A stretch of DNA of 64,000 nt from an uncultured Bacillales bacterium (GCA_946628005.1 CAMOWA010000003.1:28-64027), one strand, 5' to 3'; numbered from the stretch's first letter, positions 1,088 to 33,772 are shown. Numbers and translations: made by a program. The notes: a model not told the origin generated them from the sequence alone.

Positions 1088-1233
1088 GATTTTTTTGTAT
1101 TATAAATGTGTTTAATTAATTACTTAATCTATAGTTAATGTTTATGTTTGTAGTGAGAATAGTATTAAGATCAGTTTTATAGAACTAAATGATTATGTCG
1201 ATTATGTGCAAGTATTATTAAGTTTTTAAATTT

Positions 1234-1350
1234 ATGTTATGTACTGATTTTGGAGAAATGGTTGGATTAAGTGAAGAAGATTTAGCTTATATTGATGAAG
1301 GTACAATTACAATTAGTAATAATAAATTTATAATGTCATTTAATCAATAA
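1234..1350 (+). pseudogene. Remnant of the C-terminal module of the surface-protein family at 1439-4449
   Basis: The 38-aa ORF MLCTDFGEMVGLSEEDLAYIDEGTITISNNKFIMSFNQ aligns to LRTDSGEEVEFNEEDLTYNDDGTVTISKNKFIMPFEN of both downstream paralogs. It lacks a signal peptide and sorting signal. It is followed by the same TTGTACAAAAA(A)TGTAA intergenic motif seen at 2953. Confidence 0.65.
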
Positions 1351-1438
1351 TCTTTTGTACAAAAATTGTAATTATCAAAAAAAATCAATTTTAATTGCAT
1401 GAGGTCTAATATATTGTTATAATAAAATTAAGGTAGGT

Positions 1439-2932: not shown

Positions 2933-3048
2933 CTTTTTTCTTTTTTTAATTATTTGTACAAAAAATGTAAATGTATTAATTGTTTTTTTTGTTTTTATTG
3001 TTTGAAGTTGAGTTTATTGTTAAAATAATTTTAAGGTTGGTGTGTTTT

Positions 3049-6467: not shown

Positions 6468-7130
6468 ATGATAGAAGTTTTTGAAAATATTATTAATTTA
6501 TATTCTAATGAAAGTATAACTACTACAACAATAATAGCTGTTTTATTGATGGTGTTATTTTTAGGAGTTTATGAGTTTTTTGTATATCGATTTATATCAC
6601 ATCGTTCATTTTATAATAAGTCATTTAATATTACGATAAGTGTTTTACCATTTTTTATTTCAACAATTATACTATGTTTACAATCAAATATTATTATTAC
6701 ATTAGGTACAATTGGAGCTTTAGCTATTATACGTTTTCGTACAGCTATAAAAGATCCTGTTGATATGCTTTATTTATTATGGAGTGTTTATATAGGTATT
6801 ATATGTGGTTGTCAATTATATGAAGTAGGAGTGTTAACATCTATTTTAGTTACTATTGTTTTAGTTCTTTTGGAACATATTAATTTTGGTAGAAGACCTT
6901 TTGTTTTAATATTACATAGTAATTCTGATATAGAAAAAGATGTGGTAGAATCTTTTAAAAATGATAAAATTTCTTATAAATTTAAATCAAGAAATTATAC
7001 GAATAAGGGATATGATTATGCTATTGAATTAACTATTAAGGATATTGAGGGATTAAAAAAAGAATTATCTGATAATAAGAAAGTTACAAAGTATTCTATA
7101 ATTGAGTATGATGCCGATGATATCGTTTAG
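6468..7130 (+). CDS. DUF4956 membrane protein
   Basis: Four TM segments with the IIRFRTAIKDPVDMLYLLWSVYIGIICG signature. Confidence 0.6.
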   Translation: MIEVFENIINLYSNESITTTTIIAVLLMVLFLGVYEFFVYRFISHRSFYNKSFNITISVLPFFISTIILCLQSNIIITLGTIGALAIIRFRTAIKDPVDMLYLLWSVYIGIICGCQLYEVGVLTSILVTIVLVLLEHINFGRRPFVLILHSNSDIEKDVVESFKNDKISYKFKSRNYTNKGYDYAIELTIKDIEGLKKELSDNKKVTKYSIIEYDADDIV

Positions 7131-18493: not shown

Positions 18494-19768
18494 ATGAAAT
18501 TAGTTCCTGCAAAATGTCCATCTTGTGGTGCAAATATTAAAGTTGATAGAAGTTTAAAATTTACTAAATGTGATTATTGTAATACTGAAATAATTGTTGA
18601 GGAAGCGGTAGATAATTTATTAAAAGTTGAACTTAAAGATTCTCCTACTTTTGATAATTATTTAAAACTTGGAAATCGTTATTTTGATAATAAAGAATTT
18701 GAGGAAGCATATAAAGCTTATTCTAAAGCAGAAGAAATCAATCCTGATAATCCGCTAGTAGTATTGCGTAGAGGATTATGTCGTACTTTGATTACGGATT
18801 ATAATGTATTAGATATTATTTCTTCTATTAATGGGATGAGGACAGCATATGATTTAATGAAAAAAATGAATTTTTCTAAAGATGAAATAAATAACTGTAT
18901 TAATGATACGGGTACTGTATTATATATTACTAAAAAGTATATTGTAGATGTTTATAATCGTAACAAATTAAATAAAGAGCAAACAAAAGGCTATATTGAG
19001 CGGTTAGAGTCTTGTTTAGATGGTTATTATTATTTGGATAGTATTGTGGATGGCGATAAAGCTTTGGAGAAAAGAATTCTTTCTAGTATTATAGAAATTA
19101 TTGATATTATTTTAGGAAATAGTAATGATGCGAAATATCATTTAAGTAGTTCTTATGTTTCTGAATTGAAAGATAAACGTAAGAATTGTGTTAATCGTTT
19201 AGGTACAGATTATAAAAAAGTTGAGACAAATGTTTCCAAGGAAAAAGTAGTTGATGTGGATGGACATTCTACTATTATTTGGACTGTTTTATGTTATGTG
19301 ATGGTTGTATTTTTGTTTATTTTATTTTTAGGCTCTATTTTTACTAGTGATGGAATTTTATCAATTGGTCTTTGGTTTTTATGTATGATTAGTTTTCTTC
19401 CTTTTATAAAGAAATATTTAGTTGGGAAGTTTGGAAGTAATGTTGGTAAAGTAGTTATTATAATACGTACTCTTTTGTTTCTTTTGGCTTTTATTCTATT
19501 TGCATCATCTCCATCTCCATTTGAAAGAACTTTTTATCTTGATGATGTTTCTATTTCTTTTCATAGCGGTTTATTTGAGTTAAAGAATGATAGTATTATA
19601 AGTGGTAAATATCATTGGGATTCTAAAGATAATGACTACTATATTTATGTTCAAACTGATGATAATCAAAACCTTGAATATCGATATCGTGAAAATGATG
19701 AAGGTGGGACTTTGTGTTTACTAGAAAATAATAAATGTATAGAGACTTATTTACCTTCTAATCCTTAA
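18494..19768 (+). CDS. Zinc-ribbon + TPR-like + multi-TM protein
   Basis: CPSCGx15CDYC zinc ribbon at the N-terminus. A TPR-like segment (YLKLGNRYFDNKEFEEAYKAYSKAEEINPDN). Three to four TM segments. Confidence 0.5.
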   Translation: MKLVPAKCPSCGANIKVDRSLKFTKCDYCNTEIIVEEAVDNLLKVELKDSPTFDNYLKLGNRYFDNKEFEEAYKAYSKAEEINPDNPLVVLRRGLCRTLITDYNVLDIISSINGMRTAYDLMKKMNFSKDEINNCINDTGTVLYITKKYIVDVYNRNKLNKEQTKGYIERLESCLDGYYYLDSIVDGDKALEKRILSSIIEIIDIILGNSNDAKYHLSSSYVSELKDKRKNCVNRLGTDYKKVETNVSKEKVVDVDGHSTIIWTVLCYVMVVFLFILFLGSIFTSDGILSIGLWFLCMISFLPFIKKYLVGKFGSNVGKVVIIIRTLLFLLAFILFASSPSPFERTFYLDDVSISFHSGLFELKNDSIISGKYHWDSKDNDYYIYVQTDDNQNLEYRYRENDEGGTLCLLENNKCIETYLPSNP

Positions 19769-19841: not shown

Positions 19842-20726
19842 ATGAATATAGATTATAATTTATATAAAATATTTTTATATTTATATGAAGAAAAAAGTAT
19901 CTCTAAGACAGCTAATAAATTGTATGTTTCTCAACCTGCTATTAGTTATAGTTTAAAAGAATTAGAGCAACAATTAGGGTATACATTGTTTTATCGTAAT
20001 TCTAAGGGGATTGAACCAACTATTGAAGCAAAAGAACTCTATGGCTATTTATCTTGTGCTTTTAATATTATAAAAAATGCAGAGGAGCATATTACTAATT
20101 TAAATCATTTAACGAAAGGAACAATTCATGTTGGAGTTCGATCTTATCTTCTTGTTTCTTTTTTAGAGGAGTTTATTCATAATTTTTTAATTAAGTATCC
20201 AAATATTCATTTTAAGATTACTTCATTATATGATGAGGATTGTTCTAAGTTATTAGAGAATGGTGTAATAGATTTGTTAATTGATGTTTTCCCTTTTTCT
20301 AATAATGAAATCGTAAAGAAAAAGTTAGATGTTTGGAATGGTTGCTTTTTTTATAATAAAAATTTATTTCATGTTTCTAATCTATCGTTTAATGATTTAT
20401 CTAATTTTTCTGTTATCTTACCAAATTCTTCTTCTCTAAGAGGAAAATTAGATGAAGTAATATCTTCTTCTAATGTACAATTTTCTAATATTATTGAATC
20501 TGATAATGTTGAATTTATTATTGATTTTGTTAGAAAAGAGAAATATATTGGTTTTTTGCCTTATGAAATTTTAGATAAATTAGAAGATAAAACGTTATTT
20601 GAAAAAATTTATTTTGAAGATAAAAATTTAACTTATGATATTTGTTGCTGCTACAAAGATGAATTTTTAAATCCAGCTAGTAAAAAATTTGTTGAAATGT
20701 TAGATGAAAAAGAAAGTGTTAATTAA
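19842..20726 (+). CDS. LysR-family transcriptional regulator
   Basis: N-terminal HTH SISKTANKLYVSQPAISYSLKELEQQLG. Length is 294 aa. Confidence 0.8.
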   Translation: MNIDYNLYKIFLYLYEEKSISKTANKLYVSQPAISYSLKELEQQLGYTLFYRNSKGIEPTIEAKELYGYLSCAFNIIKNAEEHITNLNHLTKGTIHVGVRSYLLVSFLEEFIHNFLIKYPNIHFKITSLYDEDCSKLLENGVIDLLIDVFPFSNNEIVKKKLDVWNGCFFYNKNLFHVSNLSFNDLSNFSVILPNSSSLRGKLDEVISSSNVQFSNIIESDNVEFIIDFVRKEKYIGFLPYEILDKLEDKTLFEKIYFEDKNLTYDICCCYKDEFLNPASKKFVEMLDEKESVN

Positions 20727-20737
20727 ACACTTTTTTT
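20714..20737 (+). terminator. Rho-independent terminator
   Basis: AAGTGTT/AACACTT stem followed by T7. It lies inside the track's extended PBP ORF, which supports the start at 20761. Confidence 0.65.
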
Positions 20738-20760
20738 CATATTGTTTAACGAGGTGGATT

Positions 20761-22004
20761 ATGTTTACTAAAAGTATTGATAAAAGAATTAAAATATTAT
20801 TTTTTGTGTTTTTGATTCCTTTTTTTCTTATTCTTATTAAGGTCTTTTATATTCAGGTTTTTGAGTATAAAAAATTAAATAAGTTAGCTAAAAATTTATG
20901 GAGTAGGGATTTGGAAATACAAGCAGAGAGAGGTAAAATATTTGATAGAAATGGTGTTGTTTTAGCGGATAATTTAACTACCACTTCTTTAGTTATTCTT
21001 CCAAATCAGGTAAAAGATAAGGAGCTTGTTACTAAGAAGTTAGCAACTATTTTGAATGTTTCTTATGATTCTATGAAAAGGCATGTTTATAAAAAAACTT
21101 CAATTGAGAGAGTTCATCCAGAGGGAAGAAGGCTTTCTTATGATGTTGCTGAAAAGATTCAGAGGCTTCATTTTGATGGTGTTTATTTAGTTAAAGAATC
21201 TAAGAGAGATTATCCTTATAAGGATTTACTTTCACATTCTTTGGGTTATGTTGGTATTGATAATCAAGGGTTATCTGGATTAGAATATCAATATGATAAA
21301 ATTTTAACTGGTGAGAATGGAGCTATTAAATATTTTAGTGATGCTCATGGTAATAAATTATCTGTTAGTGATCAATATGTTTCTCCAAAGAATGGTTTAA
21401 ATATTAATTTAACTATTGATTTAAATATTCAAAAATCTTTGGAGAGAGAATTATCTAATATTAAAGATATGTTTCAGCCGGAGATGGCTCTTGCTATTGT
21501 AGTAGATCCAAAAAATGGTGAAATACTTGGAATGAGTTCTTATCCGGATTATGATCCTAATCAATATCAAAAATTTAGTTCATCTTCTCTAAGTCGTAAT
21601 CTTCCAATTTGGGCTAGTTATGAACCTGGAAGTACTTTTAAAATTGTAACAATGGCTTCTTCTGTTGAAGAAAAAGTTATTGATATTTTTAAAGATCGTT
21701 TTTATGATTCTGGTAAAGTTAGTGTTGATGGAAGTGTACTGAAATGTTGGAAATCTGGAGGACATGGAGATCAAACTTTCTTAGAAGTGTTACAAAATTC
21801 TTGTAATCCTGGCTTTGTAAAACTTGGTCAATTGTTAGGAAAAGAAAGATTGTTTTCTTATATAAAAAATTTTGGTTTTGGTGAAAAAAGTGGGATTGAT
21901 TTAAATGGTGAGGGAACAGGAATATTATTTCCAATGGAAAAGATTGGTAATGTTGAACTTGCTACTTCGGCTTTTGGGCAAGGGATTAGTGTCACACCTA
22001 TACA
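20761..22004 (+). CDS. spoVD: SpoVD-like class B penicillin-binding protein, 5' segment (interrupted)
   Basis: gaggtgg RBS and ATG at 20761. TM segment, PBP dimerisation region, SxxK (STFK) and SxN (SCN). The frame runs ..AFGQGISVTP and then 4 codons into the insert before a stop. Confidence 0.8.
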
Positions 22005-22021
22005 CCTTATTGTCTAATAAA
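21991..22021 (+). other. attL of element E1
   Basis: Core TACA at 22001-22004. Element-side arm GTCTAATAAA at 22012-22021, 7 nt from the CA dinucleotide. Confidence 0.7.
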
Positions 22022-22157
22022 TGATACCTTTATTATTATTAGAGGAATAAATAAGTAGTAAATATACGAAAAGTATGATATTGAGTATATATATAAACAT
22101 GTAAATTAACTTACATTTTAGTGTAAGTTTTTTAGAATTATATAAAAAAAAGCAAAA

Positions 22158-22176
22158 TTCGTACAAAATGTACGAA
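22158..22176 (+). promoter_or_regulatory. Operator-like perfect palindrome upstream of the E1 ATPase gene
   Basis: TTCGTAC-aaaat-GTACGAA, 65 nt upstream of the ATG at 22241. Confidence 0.4.
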
Positions 22177-22240
22177 AATGTTAAAAAAATATGTTTTTTT
22201 TGCACGGAAAGTGCTAAAATTTGTATAGAGGTGAATTTCT

Positions 22241-23536
22241 ATGTATAGAAAAATAGAAGAAGAATTAAAAAAGTGGAAGAATGATTATAAGATGCCACTT
22301 ATGTTAGTTGGCGCAAGACAAACAGGAAAAACATATATTTTAGAAGAATTTTGTAAGGAAAATTTTGATAATTATGTTTATATAAATTTGGATAAAGAAG
22401 AAAATATAGCTGAAATATTTGAAGAAACTATCGATCCAAATACAATAATAGAAAAAATAGAAATAATTAAAAATGTAGTTATTAATCCTGAGAATACAAT
22501 AATATTTCTTGACGAAATTCAAGTAAGTGAAAGAGCTATTACATCTTTAAAATATTTTTGTGAAAGTGAAAAACAATATAAAATTGTTACTGCTGGCTCT
22601 CTACTTGGAGTTAAAATCAATAGATTTAAATCATCATTTCCAGTTGGTAAAGTAACAATTAAATATCTATATCCAATGGACTTTGAAGAATATTTAATGG
22701 CCTTGAAGGAAGATAAGTTAATTAATGAAATAAAAACTCATTATGAATCTAATGAAGCTCTAATGAATCCAATACACGAAAAAGCATTAGATTTATATAA
22801 AAAATATTTAGTACTAGGTGGAATGCCTGCTATGATAAATAATTTTATAGATAATGAATGTAATATATCGCATGTTGATTTTACTTTACAAGAACAAATA
22901 ATAACTTCATATTTAGCAGATATGAATAAATATACTGAAAATAGTGAAGGAATTAAAAATAATCAAATATATAATTCTATACCTAAAGAACTTGCTAGAG
23001 TTAATAATACTTTTAAATATAGTATAGTAGATAAGGATGCTAGAAAAGTTAGATATGAAAGTAGTTTGGATTGGTTACTTGCTAGTAATATGATATTAAA
23101 ATGTGATATGACTGAAAAAAATGAATCTCCTTTAAAAGCATTTGCTAATTCTGATAAATTTAAATTATATTTAAGTGATGTTGGATTACTTAGATCATTA
23201 TCTAATTTAGATTACAGTGAAATTCTTTTAGATAAAAATGAAATGTTTAAGGGAGTCCTTACGGAAAATTATGTGGCATGTTCCTTATATCCTAATTCTA
23301 AAGAATTATATTATTATAATTTTGATAGATATGAAATAGATTTTTTAATAAAAATAGATGGAGATATTATTCCAGTAGAAGTTAAAAGTGGTAGAAGAAC
23401 TAATAGTAAAAGTTTAAATGAATATATAAAGAAATATAATCCTAACTATAGTATTAGAATATCTTCTAAAAATTTTGGCTTTGAAAATAAAATAAAATCT
23501 GTACCACTTTATGCAGTATTTTGTATTAATAAATAA
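22241..23536 (+). CDS. AAA+ ATPase (AAA_14 + DUF4143-type architecture)
   Basis: Walker A GARQTGKT and Walker B IIFLDEIQ. The 431-aa length and C-terminal EIDFLI..PVEVKSG segment are typical of DUF4143 ATPases. Confidence 0.7.
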   Translation: MYRKIEEELKKWKNDYKMPLMLVGARQTGKTYILEEFCKENFDNYVYINLDKEENIAEIFEETIDPNTIIEKIEIIKNVVINPENTIIFLDEIQVSERAITSLKYFCESEKQYKIVTAGSLLGVKINRFKSSFPVGKVTIKYLYPMDFEEYLMALKEDKLINEIKTHYESNEALMNPIHEKALDLYKKYLVLGGMPAMINNFIDNECNISHVDFTLQEQIITSYLADMNKYTENSEGIKNNQIYNSIPKELARVNNTFKYSIVDKDARKVRYESSLDWLLASNMILKCDMTEKNESPLKAFANSDKFKLYLSDVGLLRSLSNLDYSEILLDKNEMFKGVLTENYVACSLYPNSKELYYYNFDRYEIDFLIKIDGDIIPVEVKSGRRTNSKSLNEYIKKYNPNYSIRISSKNFGFENKIKSVPLYAVFCINK

Positions 23537-23787
23537 TAAAATGTAGTAATGTTTATAATATAACATTTAAAGATATGCTATTGAAGCAGCTTTAAGAATA
23601 ATTTATATATGGAGGTAATAAATATGACAATAAAAGATGAATTACGCGAGCAATTTAATTTTTTTTAAAAGACAATCATTTGAAAATAAAAAAGAGTATA
23701 AAAGAAGAATTATATTTGCCAGAGGTTAGAGGAAAAGTTATTGATAAGAAAAAAAGACATTATAATAAATAAGATGATATATTATAT

Positions 23788-23818
23788 GAAGAAAAACTAT
23801 ATGTTCTTCTTTTTTTTT
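23788..23818 (+). terminator. Rho-independent terminator within E1
   Basis: GAAGAA/TTCTTC stem followed by T9. It follows a frameshifted small-ORF relic at 23634-23772. Confidence 0.5.
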
Positions 23819-23898
23819 GAAAAATGATAGATAAAATATAAATTTCTGAGTTCTTTTTTTGTTTAAAAAAAATATAATTTAAAGAAAGGACAAAGTAT

Positions 23899-24105
23899 AT
23901 GAAAAATGAAAGTAAAGTACCATCTAAAATAATAGAGTTAGAAACAAGTATTAAATTACTTGAATATTTAAAACAAAGAAATACTATTGATGATGGGATG
24001 TATAATTTTACTATTAATAAATTATTAAATAAAATCGAAGTGGAAAAAAGTAAAATTAATGATGATTATATAAATAATATTAATAATTATAAATTATTAA
24101 TTTAG
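23899..24105 (+). CDS. Small 68-aa protein directly upstream of the E1 recombinase (candidate directionality factor or regulator)
   Basis: aaggac RBS. Its stop lies 10 nt before the recombinase ATG. No recognisable motif. Confidence 0.4.
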   Translation: MKNESKVPSKIIELETSIKLLEYLKQRNTIDDGMYNFTINKLLNKIEVEKSKINDDYINNINNYKLLI

Positions 24106-24115
24106 GAGGTGCGTT

Positions 24116-25777
24116 ATGGACTTGTATACAGTTAGGGAAAATATTATGAAAGGTATTAATCTCCAAGAATTAAATTTAAGAGTATGTTTTTATGCAAGAG
24201 TATCAACTGATAAAGATGAACAATTACATTCTTTACAAAGTCAAATATCTTTCTTTAATGATTACATTAGTAAAGTTCCTAACTGGGAATTTATAGGTTC
24301 ATATATTGATGAAGGTATTAGTGGTACACAGGTTAAAAAACGTGAAGAATTTTTAAGAATGATACGAGATGCTAAAAGACATAAATTTGATTTAATATTA
24401 ACAAAAGAAATATCAAGATTTTCAAGAAGTACATTAGATAGTATTATGTATACACAAGAATTATTATCTAATGGTGTTGGTGTATATTTCTTAAATGATA
24501 ATATAAATACAATATTACCTGATTCTGAACTTAGACTTACAATGATGTCTTCAATTGCTCAAGATGAAGTGAGGAGACTTTCTGAAAGAGTTTCGTTTGG
24601 TATGAGGCGAAGTATTGATAATGGTGTAGTGTTAGGTTGTTCTAATATCTATGGATATGTAAAAGATAAAGGAAAATTAGTTATAGATGAAGAACAAGCA
24701 GAAATGATTAAAATAATATTTGATAGATATGCTAATACGAGTGATGGTTTATCTAAAGTATCAAGATATTTATTTAGTTTAGGATATAAAAGTAGAACTG
24801 GTAAAAAGATTGATACAACAATACTTACTAGAATTATAGAAAATCCTAAATATAAAGGATATTATTGTGGACATAAATCAAAAGTATTGGATTATCGTAC
24901 TAAACAAAAGAAAAGATTAAATGAATCTGATTGGATTGTTTATAAGGACTATGATAATGTTCCACCAATAGTATCTGAAGAACTATGGGAACGAGCTAAT
25001 GTTAAATTAAAAGAGAGACAAGATAGTTTTACAAATCGTGCAGTTAATAAGAAAGTATTTCAAAATAGATATACTTATTCAGGAAAAATATATTGTGGAT
25101 GTCATAGTCTTACTTATCATAGATCAAGTGCTGGGAAAAGGAAAAATAATCCCGTATGGGAATGCCAAATATATAGGAAAGAAAGTTTAAAAGGATGTTC
25201 TAATCCTAGAGTTTTTGAACTAGAACTTGATGAAGTTTTTAAAGATATGTTTAATAAATTATTTAAAAGAAGAAATAATATATTTGATGAAATATTAAGT
25301 GAATGTAAGAATTATTTAGAAACTAATAATAATGAATCAGATATTAAAAATTTAGAGTCTAAAATAATAGTTTTAGATAATAAAAAGGATAAATTACTAG
25401 AACTTGTTATGGAGGAATACTTATCTAAAGAAGATTACAAAAAGCAAGTAGATTTAATAAATGAAGATTTAGTTATTTACCAAAGTAAAATAAATGAATT
25501 AAAAAACAATAAGAAAGATAAAAATTATATGGAAAATAAAATTAGTGAAATAAAAAATGTTTTAGAAAAGTCTTTAGAAGATGATAAATGCTATAGTGAT
25601 ATATTTAATGAGATAATAGATAGAATAATAGTTCATAAACAAAGTGATAAAGTGATTCAATTATATATTTTTATTAAGACAGGAGAAAGTGTATATACTA
25701 CTTCTGATAATTTATGCAAAAAGTTTCATTTATTAGACCCTGTTACAACAAGTTATGGCGGTTTCTGCTGTTGTTAA
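24116..25777 (+). CDS. Large serine recombinase (resolvase domain + recombinase domain + zinc ribbon + coiled coil)
   Basis: FYARVSTDKDEQLHSLQSQ contains the catalytic Ser. Also ILTKEISRFSR, the Cys cluster CGCHx..WECQ..C and a long coiled coil. The ORF reads through attR into the spoVD 3' segment. Confidence 0.9.
   Translation: MDLYTVRENIMKGINLQELNLRVCFYARVSTDKDEQLHSLQSQISFFNDYISKVPNWEFIGSYIDEGISGTQVKKREEFLRMIRDAKRHKFDLILTKEISRFSRSTLDSIMYTQELLSNGVGVYFLNDNINTILPDSELRLTMMSSIAQDEVRRLSERVSFGMRRSIDNGVVLGCSNIYGYVKDKGKLVIDEEQAEMIKIIFDRYANTSDGLSKVSRYLFSLGYKSRTGKKIDTTILTRIIENPKYKGYYCGHKSKVLDYRTKQKKRLNESDWIVYKDYDNVPPIVSEELWERANVKLKERQDSFTNRAVNKKVFQNRYTYSGKIYCGCHSLTYHRSSAGKRKNNPVWECQIYRKESLKGCSNPRVFELELDEVFKDMFNKLFKRRNNIFDEILSECKNYLETNNNESDIKNLESKIIVLDNKKDKLLELVMEEYLSKEDYKKQVDLINEDLVIYQSKINELKNNKKDKNYMENKISEIKNVLEKSLEDDKCYSDIFNEIIDRIIVHKQSDKVIQLYIFIKTGESVYTTSDNLCKKFHLLDPVTTSYGGFCCC
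25729..25747 (+). other. attR of element E1
   Basis: Element-side arm TTTATTAGAC at 25729-25738, 7 nt from the CA of the TACA core at 25744-25747. Confidence 0.7.
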
Positions 25778-26405
25778 TGGAGGATATTTATATAAACCTT
25801 ATATTGTTAAAAGTATAAGTGATGATGTAAATACTATTGTTCAACAAAATAGTAGAGTTTTAAGAAGAAAAGTGATTAGTTCGGAAACTTCCTCTATTAT
25901 GAGAATTGCTTTAGAAAGCGTTGTTGCTAAGGGTGGAGGAAAAAGTGCATATATTGAGGGATATCGTATTGGTGGAAAGACAGGTACTGCTCAGAAACAA
26001 CAAAATGGTGTTTATTTAGTTAATAATTATATTATGAGTTTTATGTCTATTGTTCCATCTAATGATCCTCGTGCTGTTTTATATTTAGCAATTGATAATC
26101 CTAAAAATACTGCAATGTTATCTAGTTATACAACTACACCAATCGCAAGAAGAATTTTATTAGATATTATTGATGCTTTAAAAATACCTAAACAAAAGGG
26201 TGGTATGGAAAAGGACTTAGAATGGAATGATAAATTAACTTATGAAGTTCCTAATGTAGTTGGTTTAAATGTTAAAGATGCTAAAAAACAATTATTTAAT
26301 TATGATGTTAAAATTATTGGTTCTGGTGATATCGTATATGAGCAATCTCCTAAAGCAGGAGAGGTAATTGAAGAAGGTAGTAAAATAAGAATTTATATTA
26401 ATTAG
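25748..26405 (+). CDS. spoVD: SpoVD-like class B PBP, 3' segment (KTG motif + single PASTA domain)
   Basis: In-frame continuation ..(I)QQVMAVSAVVNGGYLYKPYIV. KTGTA motif. C-terminal PASTA domain (VPNVVGLNVKDAKKQL..). Confidence 0.8.
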
Positions 26406-26531
26406 TATTTTACGATTATTTACGTCTTAATTTTTTTAGTTTTACCTTTCTTTATTAGAAAATAGTTATCAAGTTATTCTAAATATGGTAAAATTATATG
26501 TAGTAATTATTACTGGGAAGGAGTATCTAAT

Positions 26532-28196
26532 ATGAATGAGACCATTGGTTCAAAAGGTGGGCATAATGATAGAAGAAGGTCTTTAATTATTTCTCGAAAG
26601 AAAAAAGAAAAATTAAAAGAAGAACAAGAGATTAAAGAATTAGAGAAATCTGTTAAAAAGAATCGAAAATATGTTTTAATTAAAACTGTTCCTTTAGTTT
26701 TAGCTGAGGGGATTATTCAATTTGTTAGTCCTTCTACAAATCTGAAAAATAAGACAGATGAATATGGTGATGAAGATTTTGTTTTTACTGATGATTCCAG
26801 TAAAAAAAGCAGTAATACTACTTCTAAAAAGTCTAGAAAAAAGATTATTTCTATTAATGGAGAGAATGTTGTTGTTTCCATACCTCCAAATAAAAATAAT
26901 AAGAAGAAAGTACATGATGAAATAGAATTATTAGAAGAGGACAAGGATGAGAAAGATAAAAAGGAATTAAAGAATAAAAAAGATACTAAGAGTGAGAAAG
27001 ACAAGAATAGTTTCAATCCTGCTCCAATTTTAATACCTATTTCAATAGGAGAAAAGATTTTTAATAATTCTTCTTCTAAATCAGTTGATAAAACTCATTC
27101 TTCTGATGAAATGAAGATTATAGATAATATCCTTTCTTCATCAATAGAGTTAGAAAAAGTTAAATCTAGAAAGATAGTTGAGGCTTATGAAAAAGAGTTA
27201 AAGGATATTCGTTATGATTTAAGATTATTAATTTATGAATATAATCACTTAGTTGATGATGAAGAAAAATTATTATTTAGTGATGAAGCTGCTGATTTAT
27301 TAGATAAGCTTACTTCAGTTATTTCAAAGTTAGAAGAACTAGAAAAAAAGATTCAGATTGATGATTTAGATAAATATGATGATGATTATATTTATTATTT
27401 AATTGAAGAGTATATGAAGGAGTTTAAAAGTCAAAAAATTGTAGATGAGTTAAAAGATTCTCCACTATATATTGAAATAGTTGAAAAAATAGAAGAGCTT
27501 CAGCAAAAAAAAGATATTTTGTCTGGGCAAGTAGAAGAGAAGAAAACAAATTTTGAAGAGAGAGAAAAGAAGTTTGATGAATTAAAAGAAAAATTTAATA
27601 AAATTGAACAAATTAATAAAGAATTATTAGATTTTCAGTATGAGCAAGATGCTTTATTACAAGAAGCACGTGAAAAGGTTAGGGATGCTTTAACTGTTGA
27701 GGAGAAAGTTAAGGTAGAGATGAAAATTTTAGATAATCAAAGTAGAAGATTATTAAGGATGATTGCCTTGCGTATGTTTTTTCCTGGTAGTTTTTCTGCA
27801 AAAGCAATTTCTTCTTCTATCGCAGCTTATCTTTTGTTTACTCGTAGGCTTATTCAACCAGAGACTATTACAAAGAAGTATAAGGTAATTAAAGTAATTG
27901 ATTATGGTGAAGATATTAAAGACAGTATTTCTTCATTAGAAGGCGCTATTGATTTACTTGGAAAAACTGGGAAACAGGTTGATAGATTAATAGATGATAT
28001 TCATGATAAGTTTAAAGACTATATTGGTGTTGTAAAAGAATGTGATTATTTACTATATGATTTGAATAAAATTAAGGATAATATAAAAGAAAAAGAGTAT
28101 GAGATGGAAAGAATTAAAAAAGAGCAAGAAAATGTGTTAAAAGAAAATAATGCTAAAGTTTTGAAAATAGGTGAATATCCTATTGAAAATGTGTAA
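26532..28196 (+). CDS. Hypothetical K/E-rich coiled-coil protein with one central hydrophobic segment
   Basis: Long ORF. Possible extended -10 promoter (TGgTAAAAT) upstream. No recognisable motif. Confidence 0.5.
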   Translation: MNETIGSKGGHNDRRRSLIISRKKKEKLKEEQEIKELEKSVKKNRKYVLIKTVPLVLAEGIIQFVSPSTNLKNKTDEYGDEDFVFTDDSSKKSSNTTSKKSRKKIISINGENVVVSIPPNKNNKKKVHDEIELLEEDKDEKDKKELKNKKDTKSEKDKNSFNPAPILIPISIGEKIFNNSSSKSVDKTHSSDEMKIIDNILSSSIELEKVKSRKIVEAYEKELKDIRYDLRLLIYEYNHLVDDEEKLLFSDEAADLLDKLTSVISKLEELEKKIQIDDLDKYDDDYIYYLIEEYMKEFKSQKIVDELKDSPLYIEIVEKIEELQQKKDILSGQVEEKKTNFEEREKKFDELKEKFNKIEQINKELLDFQYEQDALLQEAREKVRDALTVEEKVKVEMKILDNQSRRLLRMIALRMFFPGSFSAKAISSSIAAYLLFTRRLIQPETITKKYKVIKVIDYGEDIKDSISSLEGAIDLLGKTGKQVDRLIDDIHDKFKDYIGVVKECDYLLYDLNKIKDNIKEKEYEMERIKKEQENVLKENNAKVLKIGEYPIENV

Positions 28197-28274
28197 ATAT
28201 AATTGTAAAGTTTTTTTAATCTATCATATTGTTTATATGATTATGATATAATGTTTTAGGAATGGAGTGGTTAT

Positions 28275-29255
28275 ATGTTATTATTAACCAAAGCTGTTTT
28301 TGCAATTATGATTGGTTTTTTGTCTTCGGCTATACTTGGACTTGTTTTGTTACCAGTTTTAAGGCATTTAAGAGTTGGACAAAAAATTTCTATTTTTGTG
28401 CAAGAATCGCATCGTAAAAAAGAAGGGACTCCAACTATGGGAGGGTTAATTTTTATTATTCCAACTGTAGTTGCTACTTTGTTACTTATTTGTACTAACC
28501 GAATTAGTTATACTTCCAATTTAGGAATTGTTTTACTTGTTTTTATTGGATATGCCTGTATTGGTTTTTTAGATGATTTTTTATCTATAAGAAAAGCAGA
28601 TAATGAAGGGTTAACTACTTATCAAAAACTATTTATGCAAGTTGTAATTGCTATTGGATTTTTCTATATTTATATGAGAAGTGGTGGACAAACTGCATGG
28701 GTTGTTGGAACGTTACATATTGATTTAGAACTTGGATGGTTATATGGTCTTGCAATTTTATTTGTTTTGGTTGGTGCTAGTAATGCAGTTAATTTAACGG
28801 ATGGATTAGATGGTTTAGCAGGGGGGTTGTCTGCAATTGCTTTTATTGCTTTTGCTTTAATATCTTTATCTGTTGGTTTTGAAGATATTGGAATTTTTAG
28901 TTTAATATTAGTTGGTAGTTTAGTTGGCTTTTTAATTTATAATTCTCATCCTGCAAAAGTTTTTATGGGTGACACTGGTTCTTTAGCATTAGGGGCTGTT
29001 ATGGGAGCAATTGCTATTTTGACACATAGAGAATTAACTTTATTAGTTGTTGCATCTATATTTGTTATTGAAACATTAAGTGTAATTTTACAAACATTTT
29101 GGGTATTAGTTTTTCATCGAAAATTATTTTTAATGACTCCTATTCACCATCATTTTGAAAAACTTGGTTGGCAAGAGACAGATATTGTTAAATTATTTTG
29201 GGTTGTAGGATTAGTTTTATCAATGGCTGGTATTATATTTGGGGTATGGGTTTAG
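28275..29255 (+). CDS. mraY: Phospho-N-acetylmuramoyl-pentapeptide transferase
   Basis: KEGTPTMGG, NAVNLTDGLDGLA, VFMGDTGSLALG and HHHFE motifs. Confidence 0.92.
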   Translation: MLLLTKAVFAIMIGFLSSAILGLVLLPVLRHLRVGQKISIFVQESHRKKEGTPTMGGLIFIIPTVVATLLLICTNRISYTSNLGIVLLVFIGYACIGFLDDFLSIRKADNEGLTTYQKLFMQVVIAIGFFYIYMRSGGQTAWVVGTLHIDLELGWLYGLAILFVLVGASNAVNLTDGLDGLAGGLSAIAFIAFALISLSVGFEDIGIFSLILVGSLVGFLIYNSHPAKVFMGDTGSLALGAVMGAIAILTHRELTLLVVASIFVIETLSVILQTFWVLVFHRKLFLMTPIHHHFEKLGWQETDIVKLFWVVGLVLSMAGIIFGVWV

Positions 29256-29279
29256 AACTTTATAAGTTCTTTTTTTTTT
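29254..29279 (+). terminator. Rho-independent terminator between mraY and spoVE
   Basis: AGAACTT-tat-AAGTTCT followed by T10. Confidence 0.65.
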
Positions 29280-29310
29280 ACAATATTCATATTATTTTAT
29301 AGGTGATAAG

Positions 29311-30299
29311 ATGAAAAAAATGGATTACATTTTATTATTTGTAGTTTTTCTATTATCCATTTTTGGATTATTAATGGTATATTCTTCATCAAATATTTGG
29401 GCTGATTATAAATTTCATGATTCTTTTCATTATCTTAAATATCAATTTTTATTTTTTATTGTTGGAATCTTATTTGTATTTTTAATATCTAAAATTCATT
29501 ATAGGTTTTACTATACTCATGCTAATCAGATTTTGATATTTAGTTTAATTTTATTAATACTTGTTTTAATCCCTGGTATTGGTAGTATTCGAAATGGAAG
29601 TAGGAGTTGGTTTGGTATTGGTTCTTTTGGTATTCAGCCTAGTGAAGCTGCTAAAATAAGTATTTTGATTTTTACGAGTAAATATTTATCTAGAAGTGAT
29701 GGCTATATTAATAGTTTTATAAAAGGGATATTTCCTATTTTATTTATGACTTTTTTTCTTTTTGGTCTTATTATGCTTCAACCTGATTTAGGAACAGGAA
29801 CAATTTTATTTTTATCTGTTATATCTTTATTATTTATTGCTGGAGTTAATTTAAAATTCTTTTTATGTGGTGGTTTTATAGGACTCTTTGGATTAATTGG
29901 ATTGATAATAATAGCTCCTTATCGTCTTCAGAGAATTACTTCTTTTCTAGATCCTTGGAAAGATCCCTTAGGTACTGGTTTTCAAATGATACAAAGTCTT
30001 TATGCAATTGGACCTGGTGGTTTACTTGGAGAAGGATATTTAAATTCTATTCAAAAACACTTTTATTTACCAGAACCGCAGACTGATTTTATTTTTTCCA
30101 TAATTACGGAAGAGTTTGGTTTTATAGGTGCACTTGTTGTTGTTATTTTGTTTTCTATTATATTATATCGAGGTATTTTTATCGCAACACATTGTAATGA
30201 TTTGTTTGGAAAATATTTATCTTTTGGAATTGTTTTTCAATTAATATTTCAGGCTCTATTAAATTTAATGGTTGTAGTAGGGTTAATACCAGTTACAGG
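29311..30299 (+). CDS. spoVE: SpoVE/FtsW-family SEDS protein, 5' segment (interrupted)
   Basis: Ten-TM-type profile. RSWFGIGSFGIQPSE and PEPQTDFIF motifs. It ends ..GLIPVTG, with the stop codon supplied by the first bases of the insert. Confidence 0.8.
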
Positions 30300-30306
30300 G
30301 TAAGTC
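30291..30306 (+). other. attL of element E2
   Basis: AGTTACA-GG-g-TAAGTC. Crossover GG at 30298-30299. Confidence 0.65.
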
Positions 30307-30628
30307 CTACTAGGTAACTGATAATGATAAATAAAATAAACCTTTATTTTAAAAGGAATTTGAGATTTTAATATAAAATAGAAAATATTAATAATGAGAT
30401 AAAATTTATAATAATTATTAAAAAATACAAAATTTTGCGGATAAAAAAAGGGGTAATTTTACCATTACTGCAAAGTTATTGTTCTTATAAGAGGTACCCA
30501 TGAAACGAAAAATAATAAAATAAAAGACTAGATTTTCTAGACTTTTTTCGTAAAATTTACATATGTTAAATAGATTGTTTATTAAGTAATAATTAAAATA
30601 TGATAAAATTATAATAGGTGATGAGTGT

Positions 30629-31393
30629 ATGAAAAAAAATAAAAAAATAATCACACTTATATTTATAACTATTTTTATTTTATTAATTTTATCTATTATA
30701 TTTATTTTATATAATAAGAATAAAGTACATAATAATACAAAAAAAGAATATATAAAAGAAGAAATAAAAAATAAAGATGAAAATAAAGAAAAAGAAGAAA
30801 CTAAAAAGGAAGAAACTAATGTAGAAGAAGAAATAAAAGTTGAAGAAGAAACAAAAAATGAGGAATATCTTGAAAAAGAAGAGAATAATAATTCAAAAAC
30901 AAATAATAGTCAATTTAATAGTAAAAACAACAATAATCAAAACAATAATCAAAATAATAATCAAAATAGTAGTCAAAACAATAATCAAAATAATAACCAA
31001 AATAATAATCAAAATAATAATCAAAATAGTAGTCAAAATAATGATACACCTAAAGAAAGTACACCACCTCCTCCTCCAACATACACATGTCCTTCAAACT
31101 ACTCATTAAATGGTACAGAATGTATTAGTACACAAGCAGCAAATTATATTTGTACAGATGGAAGAGTGGAATATTCAAATGGAACTATAAGTGGTTGTAT
31201 TAATATGAATGAAGGTTATTATATAGAAGAAGGAGCATGCCCTGCAGGATATGGAGAATTAAAAATAATTTCTATAGGAGTACCAGATATGACAAAATGT
31301 TTGCCAGTATATTCAAAAGTACCTGTATGTACAGAAGATTATAATCTACAAGGTTCAACTTGTATAAAAATAATACCCGCAACTCAAAGTTAA
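30629..31393 (+). CDS. Signal-anchored protein with K/E-rich and (NNNQ)n low-complexity linker and a 10-Cys C-terminal domain (E2 cargo)
   Basis: N-terminal TM segment. Asn/Gln repeat and a PPPPP hinge. The motif Cx3Yx2xGxxCI occurs at both ends of the Cys-rich domain. Confidence 0.6.
   Translation: MKKNKKIITLIFITIFILLILSIIFILYNKNKVHNNTKKEYIKEEIKNKDENKEKEETKKEETNVEEEIKVEEETKNEEYLEKEENNNSKTNNSQFNSKNNNNQNNNQNNNQNSSQNNNQNNNQNNNQNNNQNSSQNNDTPKESTPPPPPTYTCPSNYSLNGTECISTQAANYICTDGRVEYSNGTISGCINMNEGYYIEEGACPAGYGELKIISIGVPDMTKCLPVYSKVPVCTEDYNLQGSTCIKIIPATQS
30925..31043 (+). repeat. Tandem 12-nt repeat (aat aat caa aay) encoding (NNNQ)n
   Basis: About 10 near-identical in-frame units, with two larger 48-nt super-repeats ending ..caaaatagtagtcaaaa. 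Confidence 0.8.
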
Positions 31394-31420
31394 AAGATTA
31401 GAGAAATCCAATCTTTTTTT
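31393..31420 (+). terminator. Rho-independent terminator within E2
   Basis: AAAGATT/AATCTTT stem with a 10-nt loop, followed by T7. Confidence 0.55.
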
Positions 31421-31726
31421 ATGTTATTGTCAAGATGAAGATATTGTTGGATTGCTATTAATTTTGGATAATTGTTGGTTAGTTTTTTTTAAAAACAAAT
31501 ATATAAGAAACAGTTGAGGCAATATCTAAACGATTAGGTAAGAGAACAATAGAAAAATAATCACTAAGTCAATCAATTAGTTTATCTAACTATAATTGTA
31601 ACAAATTAATTCTGCTTTTTAGGAAGATTTAAATATGAATGTTATATCATTATATAAATTTAAAGAGAAAATAAAAGATATTCATTATTTTCTTTTTTTG
31701 TGAATAGATTTAATAGAGGTGGCTCT

Positions 31727-31861
31727 ATGAAACGAATAGATAAAGATGGTAAACGAAGAAAACTTAACATTGAATATATTTATAAAAAAGATGGAACCAA
31801 GCTTGAGGAAATTCTAAAGGAGGGATATTTATGCTATTTAAGAAATTTAAAGGTCAAATGA
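31727..31861 (+). CDS. 44-aa basic protein (not in the ORF track), tentatively TnpW-like
   Basis: agaggtgg RBS 5 nt upstream. MKRIDKDGKRRKLNIEYIYKKDGTKLEEILKEGYL loosely resembles small proteins found with clostridial large-serine-recombinase transposons. The similarity is weak. Confidence 0.3.
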   Translation: MKRIDKDGKRRKLNIEYIYKKDGTKLEEILKEGYLCYLRNLKVK

Positions 31862-32008
31862 TTTACTTTTTTTGAATGGATGATGGTTGTTACATGGCAT
31901 CTTGAGGTAATGGTATCGCGTAATTTAGGATTGGAGGAATTTCATAATGCAATATAGATTTATCAATAACAATATTTTGGATTTACTTAGTATGGAGGAC
32001 TTTTATTA

Positions 32009-33583
32009 ATGGAATATATCTGTGGTGCTTATGACAGACTATCTGATGCCGATAGTAAAATAGATGAAAGTTCTTCTATACAAAGTCAAAAAATCATAAT
32101 TGATTCTTTTGCAAAATTTAACAATCTTAAGATATATAAACATTATGTAGATGATGGTTATTCTGGTGGTAATTTTGATAGACCTGCTTTTCAAGAGATG
32201 ATTAATGATATTGAATCTGGAATAATTAATTGTGTTATTACCAAAGACTTATCAAGACTTGGTCGTGAAATGTATAAAACAGGTAAATATATAGAAGAAT
32301 ACTTTTTAGAAAAAGGTGTTAGATATATTGCAATTAATGATTCCTATGATTCTAATATTGGTGATTCAATGCTTGGAATTAGATTAAGTGTAAATGATTT
32401 ATATTTAAGAGATGTATCGAAAAAAGTAAAGACTTCATTAAGAGCAAAACAAAATCGTGGCGACTATATTGGTTCATTTCCTTTATATGGTTATAAGAAA
32501 GATCTAAATGATAAGCATAAATTAATTATTGATGAAGAAGTAAGACATATAGTCGAATTAATTTATGACTTGGCTTTAGAGGGAAAAAGTCCTAATAAAA
32601 TAGCAGAATATTTAACCTTAAAGAAAATACCAATTCCTATTGTTCATAAACAAGAACCTAGAGCAAAAGATATCACTGAAAATGATGGATTTGGGATTTG
32701 GAAAAGACAGACAGTAAAAGGTATTTTAACAAATGAAATGTATATTGGAAATATGGTACAAAATACTCATAATAAAATTAGTTATAACTCAAAGAAATTA
32801 AGGAAAACATCAAAAGATGAATTAATTATTGTTGAGGGTACTCATGAAGGAATTGTATCTAAGGAAACTTTTGATAAAGTTCAAGATATACTTCATAAAA
32901 AAACAACTACTCGAGTTACTGACCATCAATTAGATTATTTGTTAGGAGGATTACTTTATTGCCATGAGTGTGGTCGAAATATAAGAATAAGTGAAGATAT
33001 TTTAAAATCTGGTGTAAGACATTATACTCAATGTAATTTATATACTAGAAAAGGAAAATATGGAATATGCTCATCTCATAGAATTAATTATGATTGGTTA
33101 GAAGAAGATATTTTAGAATATTTACAAGATGTATGTGAAAAATTTTGTAAACATTATGACTTTAATGAATTAGAAGATAGTTCAGAAAATATTGTTATGA
33201 AAAATTTAAAAGAAATTAATCAAAAAATTGAAAAATTAAACAATTTATTAAATTCTCAAAAATCTACCATAGATAATCTATATATGGATAAAGTAAAAGG
33301 TTTAGTAGATGAAGAAATGTATAAACGAATCTACGATAAAACAAAACAAGAAATTAATAGATTAAATATGGAATTAGAAGAATTAAATAATAAAAAACAA
33401 ATTAATGAAAAGCAGCCATCTGATAATACTAGTTTTAATAAATGTAGAAGATCTGTTTTAGATTATATGTCTTTAAAGAATCCTAGGAAAGATCAGATAA
33501 AAAGACTTGTAGATAAAATAGAAATTGATAAAGATAAAAAAGTATATGTACATTTAAGATTTCCAGAGTTAATAGAAATTTAA
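32009..33583 (+). CDS. Large serine recombinase (E2)
   Basis: YDRLSDADSKIDESSSIQSQ contains the catalytic Ser. Also VITKDLSRLGR, zinc ribbon CHECGx..C..C and a C-terminal coiled coil. It ends 88 nt before the attR core. Confidence 0.9.
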   Translation: MEYICGAYDRLSDADSKIDESSSIQSQKIIIDSFAKFNNLKIYKHYVDDGYSGGNFDRPAFQEMINDIESGIINCVITKDLSRLGREMYKTGKYIEEYFLEKGVRYIAINDSYDSNIGDSMLGIRLSVNDLYLRDVSKKVKTSLRAKQNRGDYIGSFPLYGYKKDLNDKHKLIIDEEVRHIVELIYDLALEGKSPNKIAEYLTLKKIPIPIVHKQEPRAKDITENDGFGIWKRQTVKGILTNEMYIGNMVQNTHNKISYNSKKLRKTSKDELIIVEGTHEGIVSKETFDKVQDILHKKTTTRVTDHQLDYLLGGLLYCHECGRNIRISEDILKSGVRHYTQCNLYTRKGKYGICSSHRINYDWLEEDILEYLQDVCEKFCKHYDFNELEDSSENIVMKNLKEINQKIEKLNNLLNSQKSTIDNLYMDKVKGLVDEEMYKRIYDKTKQEINRLNMELEELNNKKQINEKQPSDNTSFNKCRRSVLDYMSLKNPRKDQIKRLVDKIEIDKDKKVYVHLRFPELIEI

Positions 33584-33663
33584 AATCAGTTATTTGGAAG
33601 CATTACTGCCATTTTTCAGTTATTTTGCAAAGGCAACCTATCAAAAATTAGTTGCACTTGCAA

Positions 33664-33679
33664 GACTTAGGGTGTTACT
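33664..33679 (+). other. attR of element E2
   Basis: GACTTA-g-GG-TGTTACT. Crossover GG at 33671-33672. Confidence 0.65.
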
Positions 33680-33772
33680 CTTCCATTTTTAAGTTATGGT
33701 GGAAGCAGTTTACTAGTTAGTATGGGAAGCGTGGGAATTTTACTTAGTATTTCTAGAAACTTAACTTATTAG
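33673..33772 (+). CDS. spoVE: SpoVE/FtsW-family SEDS protein, 3' segment (33 codons)
   Basis: (G)VTLPFLSYGGSSLLVSMGSVGILLSISRNLTY* is the universally conserved SEDS C-terminal motif. It has no start codon of its own and is preceded by an in-frame TAG. Confidence 0.8.

Follow-up and report, generated by a model that had tools for sequence, protein, structure and literature searches.

The stretch of 64,000 nucleotides analysed here (GCA_946628005.1, CAMOWA010000003.1:28-64027, from an uncultured Bacillales bacterium; hereafter the window) was found to carry, between positions 20761 and 33772, a cell wall gene cluster in which two genes are interrupted, each by a short element with its own large serine recombinase (LSR). 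The interrupted genes encode a penicillin-binding protein of class B (bPBP) resembling SpoVD and a SEDS protein resembling SpoVE, and the elements are designated E1 and E2. Coordinates refer to the whole window, its first letter being 1, and all features listed are on the plus strand; related loci are denoted by L-numbers, and all of these relatives are metagenome-assembled genomes (MAGs) or metagenome contigs. After a LysR-type regulator, the genes follow the order bPBP 5' part, E1, bPBP 3' part, orf554, mraY, SEDS 5' part, E2, SEDS 3' part, as an earlier note on this DNA had described with the same coordinates. The two elements also have the common layout given in that note, with cargo on the left and the LSR at the right edge, in the orientation of the host gene and directly upstream of its 3' fragment. 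The interrupted genes, the elements, their recombinases and the attachment (att) sites of E1 are as follows.

20761..22004, plus strand: 5' part of the spoVD-like bPBP gene (Pfam PBP_dimer, and Transpeptidase profile 2-168/299)
21985..22045, plus strand: attL1, ...CACCTATA-CA-CCTTATTGTCTAATAAATG, with the CA core at 22003-22004
22005..25747, plus strand: element E1, 3,743 bp, whose removal leaves a 78-mer identical to the intact allele L093:10325
24116..25777, plus strand: LSR1, 553 aa (Pfam Resolvase, Recombinase and Zn_ribbon_recom; phrog_95 integrase, 2.7e-111)
25707..25767, plus strand: attR1, ...CATTTATTAGACCCTGTTA-CA-ACAAGTTATGG, with the CA core at 25746-25747
25748..26405, plus strand: 3' part of the spoVD-like bPBP gene (Pfam Transpeptidase 170-298/299, and PASTA; KTG motif)
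29311..30299, plus strand: 5' part of the spoVE-like SEDS gene, 330 aa (Pfam FTSW_RODA_SPOVE 4-324/356)
30300..33672, plus strand: element E2, 3,373 bp, with the GG core at 30298-30299 in attL2 and at 33671-33672 in attR2
32009..33583, plus strand: LSR2, 524 aa (Pfam; phrog_95, 3e-99)
33673..33772, plus strand: 3' part of the spoVE-like SEDS gene, its last 32 codons, VTLPFLSYGGSSLLVSMGSVGILLSISRNLTY followed by the stop

The 5' part of the spoVD-like gene encodes a transmembrane segment, the PBP_dimer domain and a transpeptidase domain with the STFK and SCN motifs, and is broken inside GQGISVTPI/Q. The Pfam Transpeptidase profile is interrupted at 168/170, between the open reading frames (ORFs) 20704-22017 and 25755-26405. 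In the SEDS ORF (29311-30303) the FTSW_RODA_SPOVE profile halts at 324/356, and the protein ends with ...LIPVTG before a stop codon located within E2, the break falling in the motif PVTG/VTLPF; the tail absent from this ORF, starting VTLPFLSYGGSS, was located at 33673-33772.

Both recombinases contain the PF00239, PF07508 and PF13408 domains, with the motifs YARVSTDKDEQ and YDRLSDADS present, and both match the NCBIfam XisF model (E about 1e-26). LSR1 and LSR2 share 24-31% identity and their cores differ (CA versus GG), which agrees with the earlier view of two orthogonal systems. Among PDB entries, LSR2 matched the catalytic domain of TnpX (2MHC, 5e-27) and, in a full-length alignment, SPbeta SprA/YokA (9DXH, 4e-17). 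The phage LSRs related to the two recombinases are 30-40% identical at most, and neither IMG/VR nor the GenBank phages contained a close relative; the best match of the phage search, MT837325, was set aside as an unrelated contig of 50% GC. Matches to a PHROG with an established phage role, that of integrase, were confined to the LSRs; the cargo consists of an ATPase and a secreted protein, and a prophage identity of E1 and E2 was ruled out because phage structural, replication and lysis genes are lacking.

The identity common to attL1 and attR1 is limited to the 4 nt TACA, with the CA core inside, and in the attP1 deduced from them a perfect inverted repeat of 12 bp (CATTTATTAGAC/GTCTAATAAATG) flanks a 16-bp spacer with CA at its centre. 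Joining 22004 to 25748 reads ...GQGISVTPIQQVMAVSAVVNGG..., and joining 30299 to 33673 reads ...LIPVTGVTLPFLSYGGSS.... For E2, ACA[GG]GTAAG / TTAG[GG]TGTT is the sole register that restores the reading frame, giving attP2 as GACTTAG-GG-GTAAGTC and attB2 as ACA-GG-TGT; a register placed on the 5-nt identity AGGGT was ruled out, as it leads to a frameshift and to a mismatch with the natural attB. The predicted junctions are ..CCTATACAACAAGTT.. for attB1, ..CCTGTTACACCTTATT.. for attP1, ..GTTACAGGTGTTACT.. for attB2 and ..ACTTAGGGGTAAGTCC.. for attP2. The CA and GG cores are both non-palindromic, matching the requirement of LSR chemistry.

Excision in silico yields single ORFs for a 633-aa bPBP and a 362-aa SEDS protein, and these predictions could be compared with naturally uninterrupted alleles. 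The predicted attB1 78-mer is identical at 78/78 nt to the allele of L093, which encodes an intact 633-aa bPBP, 98% identical, in the same upstream synteny. The predicted attB2 78-mer agrees at 77/78 nt with the intact alleles of L003, L004 and L010, where the 362-aa SEDS protein is complete and MraY is identical to that of the window. The claim that excision would restore both genes precisely is thus borne out by natural alleles. Both genes are likewise uninterrupted in a sister species at 93% identity (L094, L095), while the same interrupted arrangement was found in contigs of independent projects (L001, L002, L005, L006, L007 and L009).

The MraY protein of the window is closest (84-89%) to those of uncultured gut and rumen Bacilli MAGs, including Ca. 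Faecimonas intestinavium (85%), and about 47% identical to those of Bacillaceae. Ca. Faecimonas corresponds to the GTDB genus CAG-877 of the family CAG-611, order RF39, with genomes of ~1.4 Mb and 28% GC (PMC8035907). A clostridial affiliation, hinted at by the 26% GC of the window, was ruled out by these nearest MraY sequences (RF39, family CAG-611), the host being an uncultured rumen species of the Bacilli order RF39. Elsewhere in the window are genes for the GPR spore protease (242 bits, cutoff 120) and SpoIIP (147 bits, cutoff 123), and therefore the host keeps dedicated sporulation genes.

The rebuilt bPBP scored 684.3 bits against TIGR02214 spoVD_pbp (cutoff 688, match 4-634/636), the next model being pbp2_mrdA at 337, and MAG proteins 77-78% identical to it are labelled 'stage V sporulation protein D' by NCBI. 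The rebuilt SEDS protein scored 431.4 bits against TIGR02615 spoVE (cutoff 448.8), 396.2 against ftsW (cutoff 337.5) and 317.8 against rodA. The locus L022 has the order mraZ-rsmH-pbpB (709 aa)-493-aa ORF-spoVD-mraY-spoVE, a Bacillus-like dcw order that is repeated in L042, and the interrupted bPBP gene is therefore the second one, in the spoVD position. Best NCBIfam models, although just under cutoff, and the Bacillus-like synteny of relatives together support the two split genes as orthologues of spoVD and spoVE, which is how the earlier note had named them. A paralogue resembling PBP2B, with 28-33% identity to SpoVD, is common across the clade; the PBP2B matches obtained from rumen samples shared with the window species have mutual identities of 43-76%, and none could be assigned to that species.

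The spoVD and spoVE genes of B. subtilis are under sigmaE control in the mother cell and are required for the cortex (PMC517825), and the dcw-encoded pair of C. difficile is described as sporulation-specialised (PMC10693644). In rumen assemblies the split state is the assembled majority genotype, from at least 5 separate studies or sources and at up to 63x coverage by contig name, and this is the strongest, though indirect, argument that the SpoVD/SpoVE pair is dispensable for growth. RF39 was predicted to be spore-forming by Field et al. 2024 (PMC10868615), who nevertheless put spoVD among the genes of 'reduced presence or complete absence'; split spoVD genes could be scored as absent by annotation based on KEGG orthology (KO) and so contribute to that result. 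Terms for SEDS and PBP counts in RF39 were not found in the supplement of PMC10868615.

Recurrence of the interruptions was surveyed in 38 species-representative loci of the clade, with 42 Bacillaceae dcw loci and 80 PBP2B loci as comparison sets. All LSR genes located within ~10 kb of mraY in the 38 species (10/10) lie directly upstream of a 3' fragment, which belongs to spoVD in nine cases and to spoVE in one. None of the 42 Bacillaceae dcw loci has an LSR, and the 80 PBP2B loci contain neither an LSR nor a split gene. A split spoVD in 9/22 (~40%) against 0/80 for PBP2B, which has the same catalytic motifs, is a significant difference (Fisher p = 2e-7).

Three insertion sites were distinguished in spoVD: at STFK, ~aa 312 (L042, probably also L041 and L043); at SxN, ~aa 367 (L028, L030, L037, L040, L046 and L152); and at GQGxSVTPI/Q, aa 431 (the window, L016, L017, L031 and L181-L184). 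At the SxN and GQG sites the recombinases fall into distinct LSR1 subfamilies, with identities of 50-83% within and 38-44% between them, and the sole sequenced recombinase of the STFK site (L042) is about equally distant. In spoVE, sites were found at ~aa 236 (L036), aa 330 (the window, L036 and L178-L180) and aa 333 (L017).

Both genes are interrupted in L017, and in L036 spoVE is in three pieces, so that interruption at two or more places has recurred in the clade. The L017 locus (1089-3598, 18673-19740) has spoVD interrupted with an E1-type LSR, 83% identical, and spoVE broken after PVTGVTL by a different element, with an XRE-like helix-turn-helix ORF. In L036 (11013-14927) the break at ~aa 236 is accompanied by an LSR 34% identical to LSR2, and the other break, at aa 332, falls at the ACAGG/ of E2. 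The suggestion that such a doubly gated cognate pair is without parallel is thus weakened, and a precedent for several elements in partner genes also exists in the nif genes of heterocysts (PMC11249958). The clade-wide pattern, with sites in spoVD and spoVE and none in pbpB, is more interesting than a single double interruption.

The cargo and small genes of the two elements, and a repeat in E2, are located as follows.

22241..23536, plus strand: E1 cargo, an AAA_14/DUF4143 ATPase (Pfam; PADLOC PDC-S01, E=4.7e-152, full length)
23899..24105, plus strand: orf68, a small helical protein, 11 nt upstream of LSR1
30629..31393, plus strand: E2 cargo, a secreted or membrane protein of 254 aa, low-complexity and Cys-rich
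31727..31861, plus strand: orf44, a small protein upstream of LSR2, with homologues 37-82% identical in L178, L179 and L180
33586..33625, plus strand: two direct repeats TCAGTTATTT in the right arm of E2, 30 nt apart, between the LSR2 stop and attR2

The E1 cargo ATPase is a candidate anti-phage defence gene, judging from its PADLOC match. A 92% identical copy is present in L012 beside an ABC-F gene, with no spoVD or LSR nearby. Cargo varies among elements: the PDC-S01 ATPase of the window E1 is replaced elsewhere by Fic proteins, AbiEii or giant surface proteins. An ORF of 44-82 aa in the position of orf68 precedes 8/9 full-length LSR1-type recombinases, that of the window included, and none was found ahead of the recombinase of L046. 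Neither orf68 nor orf44 has a family match in Pfam, PHROGs or PADLOC; by position, orf68 is a candidate recombination directionality factor (RDF) for LSR1 and orf44 a candidate accessory factor or RDF for LSR2. The direct repeats of E2 may be binding sites for an accessory factor; an inverted copy, TAACTGA, is present at the left end of E2 (~30316), and analogous direct repeats follow the LSR stop in L179 and L180.

The LSR1 ORF extends 30 nt beyond the attR1 crossover, so that its C-terminus would be altered upon excision. The P-arm of E1, TTTCATTTAWTAGAC, is conserved in L001, L003, L016, L017, L031 and L181-L184, and the attR1 arm adjacent to the core reads CCCCTATA in L001/L002 and CCCTGTTA in the window. 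LSR1 of the window differs from those of L001, L002 and L006 by 44-59 nt, the flanking host genes by 0-3 nt, and this divergence beside near-identical host genes suggests recombination or replacement among E1 copies.

Outside the elements, the intervening genes and the end of mraY are located as follows.

26532..28196, plus strand: orf554, a 554-aa coiled-coil protein with no family match, outside both elements
28275..29255, plus strand: mraY, intact, between E1 and E2 (TIGR00445, 299.6 bits)
29254..29279, plus strand: hairpin AGAACTT-TAT-AAGTTCT followed by T10 (-4.7 kcal/mol, z = -2.3)

Between spoVD and mraY, orf554 is kept in the seven closest relatives (L011-L017; 29-44% identity), where it occupies the place that murE has in Bacillus. 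A plausible extended -10 read from the sequence, TGATATAAT at 28244-28252, is in line with the earlier proposal that mraY is transcribed independently of spoVE. Of the terminator proposed at 29254-29279, the hairpin and the T-run do exist; the 7-bp stem is AT-rich and weak and was not called by a terminator scan, and as a terminator it is plausible in a genome of 26% GC. The palindrome GAACTT-N(3-8)-AAGTTC with a T-run occurs as a single copy in the window (29255-29269, in the mraY/spoVE gap), with 0.04 expected by chance. Another type of E1, type B (L003/L004, 1709-1728; L008, 5531-5550; L017, 1023-1042), has the same palindrome ~45 nt upstream of its orf68 homologue, and the window E1 keeps the 3' half of the palindrome only (~23855); it could be a shared operator, or these could merely be similar terminators.

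The octamer CATATTRT was found exactly 23 nt upstream of the ATG of spoVD (20738-20745), of spoVE (29288-29295) and of the ORF 6468-7130 (6445-6452), a DUF4956 gene beside a VTC-domain gene, and also 50 nt upstream of mraY (28225-28232). Only these 4/57 genes of the window have CATAYWNT within 80 nt upstream. The octamer resembles a sigmaE-type -10, but the leader would then be very short, and none of orf68, LSR1, orf44 and LSR2 has it upstream.

The reading that we favour, with moderate confidence, is that E1 and E2 are intervening elements of the skin/gin kind that are excised in the mother cell. Vegetative cells and the forespore would retain the elements, and spoVD and spoVE would there encode truncated, inactive proteins, which would be tolerated since the pair is needed in the mother cell only. 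During sporulation, LSR1 at CA and LSR2 at GG would recombine attL with attR in the mother-cell chromosome, probably assisted by orf68 and orf44, respectively. Circles of 3.7 and 3.4 kb would be released, spoVD (633 aa) and spoVE (362 aa) would be rebuilt and the cortex made, and the spore would inherit the uncut genome. The mother-cell timing of excision, the RDF roles and the part of the pair in the cortex of RF39 are what we infer.

Several observations weigh against mother-cell excision. Both rebuilt proteins score just under the spoVD and spoVE cutoffs and the SEDS protein exceeds that of ftsW, while a second SEDS gene was found neither in the window nor in any fetched locus of the clade. 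RF39 includes lineages that are losing sporulation (PMC10868615). Regex scans upstream of orf68, LSR1, orf44 and LSR2 gave nothing convincing in the way of sigmaE/sigmaK-type motifs, a sigma-70 promoter scan performed no better than shuffles, and IMG/VR yielded no contig with an attP junction. At the same spoVE site, the LSR2 relative of L180 (61% identical) belongs to an element resembling an integrative and conjugative element (ICE), with a TraG/VirD4-type coupling protein of a type IV secretion system. In L178 (GCA_942493215.1, OW818670.1; 3996-8730) an LSR2-type element, 55% identical and at the same GG, brings a surrogate 3' end, so that the upstream SEDS gene encodes a complete protein of 368 aa, with the native 3' end displaced to just past the recombinase; this variant suggests that disruption is costly and would not always be solved by excision. 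Finally, both families are highly mobile, and the insertions could be young, which would weaken an argument from purifying selection.

Part of this evidence points to a different explanation, in which E1 and E2 are plain relatives of integrative and mobilisable elements (IMEs) or ICEs whose attB happens to lie in spoVD and spoVE, the genes being inactivated, the carriers being cortex-defective or asporogenous forms in a lineage where sporulation is relaxing, and any excision serving transfer and not development. We regard this as rather unlikely, although the mobility of the elements speaks for it. LSR1 is represented by more than 120 database clusters at 88-93% identity, a recent horizontal spread into hosts whose own proteins are ~50% identical: in the human-gut loci L181-L184 the orf68-LSR1-attR module is 89-91% identical to that of the window, the adjoining spoVD 3' fragment 44-50% and MraY 51-60%, with the crossover still at TACA/ACAAGT. 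Within the window species two types of E1 were distinguished, whose LSR1 genes differ by a synonymous divergence (dS) of 0.43 against 0.05 for the flanking spoVD, and E1 has therefore been acquired repeatedly. The identities of LSR2 homologues run without a gap from 99% to 53%, and in the three contexts sampled, at 55%, 61% and 75%, a spoVE 3' fragment directly follows the recombinase at the same GG (3/3). The ICE-like L180 and the non-disruptive L178, the partial loss of sporulation genes in RF39 (PMC10868615), the defence-type PDC-S01 cargo, typical of selfish islands, and the lack of a sporulation promoter found on E1 or E2 favour the same explanation.

What counts against inactivation by chance is the condition and distribution of the split genes. 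In several species the halves have stayed open and evolve under purifying selection: split compared with intact alleles give a dN/dS of 0.06-0.13, the spoVD 3' fragment is open in each of four species with a break at aa 431 (dN/dS of 0.11-0.37 at dS >= 0.9), two E2-bearing alleles differ by 7 synonymous versus 1 non-synonymous codons, and the LSRs themselves have dN/dS of 0.12-0.31. As the insertions may be young, the values for the split alleles support but do not prove that these genes are not decaying. With ~40% of related species split, and with split alleles prevailing in samples of several studies and hosts, a dead-end genotype is unlikely in a gut organism that keeps gpr and spoIIP, and the avoidance of PBP2B (0/80) despite its identical motifs fits selection for a gene needed in the mother cell only.

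In L008 (1-5600) and L181-L184 (1-9700) no spoVD 5' fragment was found within 5.6-10 kb upstream of orf68-LSR1, that DNA carrying aminoacyl-tRNA-synthetase-like, S66 peptidase, radical SAM or AbiEii genes. The alternatives are elements of far greater length in these genomes, and loss or relocation of the 5' fragment.

Another possibility is that excision occurs stochastically or under stress in pre-divisional or vegetative cells, as a heritable bet-hedging switch that yields subpopulations able and unable to sporulate, the two elements together giving a low joint probability of completing sporulation; we consider it improbable. Every combination that could be scored does occur, namely E1+E2+, E1+E2- (L003, L004 and L010), E1- with spoVE, and with it the state of E2, off the contig (L093), and neither element in the sister species, and E1 and E2 therefore assort independently. 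The catalytic domain of LSR2 is closest to TnpX, a recombinase that catalyses both excision and insertion without a directionality factor. Yet empty and occupied alleles differ by a dS of ~0.07 and thus represent separate lineages, not recent products of a switch; an excised, non-replicating circle of 3.4-3.7 kb would be lost at division, making the switch one-way; and elements with identical boundaries persist across strains. Lastly, the window and all of its relatives are of metagenomic origin, but chimeric contigs from assembly or binning can be excluded for practical purposes, since identical junctions recur in the independent projects listed above, with different assemblers, the reading frames are restored to the nucleotide and orthologous insertions exist in other species.

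If mother-cell excision holds, cortex synthesis in this strain would need two recombination events. The earlier note had regarded this as an AND gate on differentiation, which would be formally true of the strain; the requirement probably arose as a side effect of two selfish elements that use one safe harbour, and not as an evolved logic gate, because E1 and E2 assort independently, spread horizontally and belong to wider families. The idea of a safe harbour is itself supported by the interruption of spoVD in ~40% of related species and never of the paralogous PBP2B.

Compared with known systems, E1 and E2 are most readily set beside skin, which interrupts sigK, a mother-cell sporulation gene, in Bacillus, Clostridioides and other Firmicutes and is excised by SpoIVCA. 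Both skin and the present elements have the LSR at the right edge, in the same orientation and before the 3' fragment, and both vary in size and have cargo unrelated between elements; 15 skin elements of 2.6-48 kb are described, the minimal one of 2.6 kb having 2 genes (Galperin et al., bioRxiv 10.1101/2022.02.25.481979). Unlike skin, E1 and E2 lie in spoVD and spoVE of an RF39 host, their excision is predicted, and their recombinases are at most 40% identical to any phage or known LSR. They resemble gin, in gerE of B. cereus (GirC and GirX, PMC5595907), in being non-prophage elements with a serine recombinase, a small accessory factor and no phage genes. However, gin is 28.6 kb long with three recombinases and a 9-bp overlap, whereas E1 and E2 are 3.4-3.7 kb with one LSR each and 2-nt cores, and the function of GirX is proven, that of orf68 and orf44 putative. 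Pairs of an LSR and a small directionality factor include SprA/SprB, CD1231/CD1234, GirC/GirX and SpoIVCA/Skr (PMC5595907, PMC10747680).

SPbeta in spsM, with SprA and SprB (PMC4191935, PMC5499854), is alike in that an LSR restores a mother-cell gene, SprA being the SPbeta integrase that rebuilds spsM in sporulation (PMC5499854), and LSR2 aligns with SprA over its full length; unlike E1 and E2, SPbeta is an active phage of 134 kb. B. subtilis 168 combines skin and SPbeta in one genome, but their targets sigK and spsM are neither a cognate pair nor adjacent. A likeness is also given by the cyanobacterial heterocyst elements of nifD, fdxN and hupL (XisA, XisF and XisC), independent elements in partner genes that serve a single function in terminal differentiation, all of which must be removed. 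In Calothrix NIES-4101, nifBHDK is fragmented and the heterocyst nif genes are in 13 parts (PMC11249958). Heterocyst XisF is an LSR, and both LSRs of the window match its NCBIfam model; however, the heterocyst elements belong to another phylum and cell type, use mixed recombinase families, and their excision has been shown experimentally. Tn4451-type mobilisable transposons (TnpX) and LSR-bearing ICEs are related through the LSR2 catalytic domain, nearest to that of TnpX, but E1 and E2 are without mobilisation or conjugation genes and are strictly site-specific, at one codon position of a sporulation gene.

The class of mechanism and the gating of a process by several elements are thus already known; new are the targets, spoVD and spoVE, and the host lineage, RF39. 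Full-text literature searches, including searches by gene name, returned no report of a natural interruption of spoVD or spoVE. Rearranged sporulation genes already described include sigK, spsM, spoVFB, gerE and, in a 2023 paper, yabG (PMC10747680), as well as spoVR (PMC4191935). If excision in the mother cell is true, spoVD and spoVE would join this set, and theirs would be the first SEDS-bPBP synthase with both partners affected and the first case in RF39, an uncultured lineage with reduced genomes. As split genes can be scored as absent, sporulation and cell-wall phenotypes predicted from MAGs may be biased, and the many diverged sets of LSR, att sites and small ORF are a source of orthogonal recombinases.

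A wider proposal is made tentatively and with some doubt, namely that throughout RF39 cortex synthesis is routinely licensed by programmed DNA deletion, with LSR elements specialised on the codons of catalytic motifs. The sites would then be STFK, SxN and GQG..TPIQ in SpoVD and GPGG and PVTG in SpoVE, and as many as three or four orthogonal excisions would be needed in one pathway. The elements would pass horizontally between very distant hosts, possibly as circles freed at mother-cell lysis. If true, this would be the densest developmental genome rearrangement known in a bacterial morphogenetic enzyme pair, and a natural collection of orthogonal LSR/att/RDF triplets.

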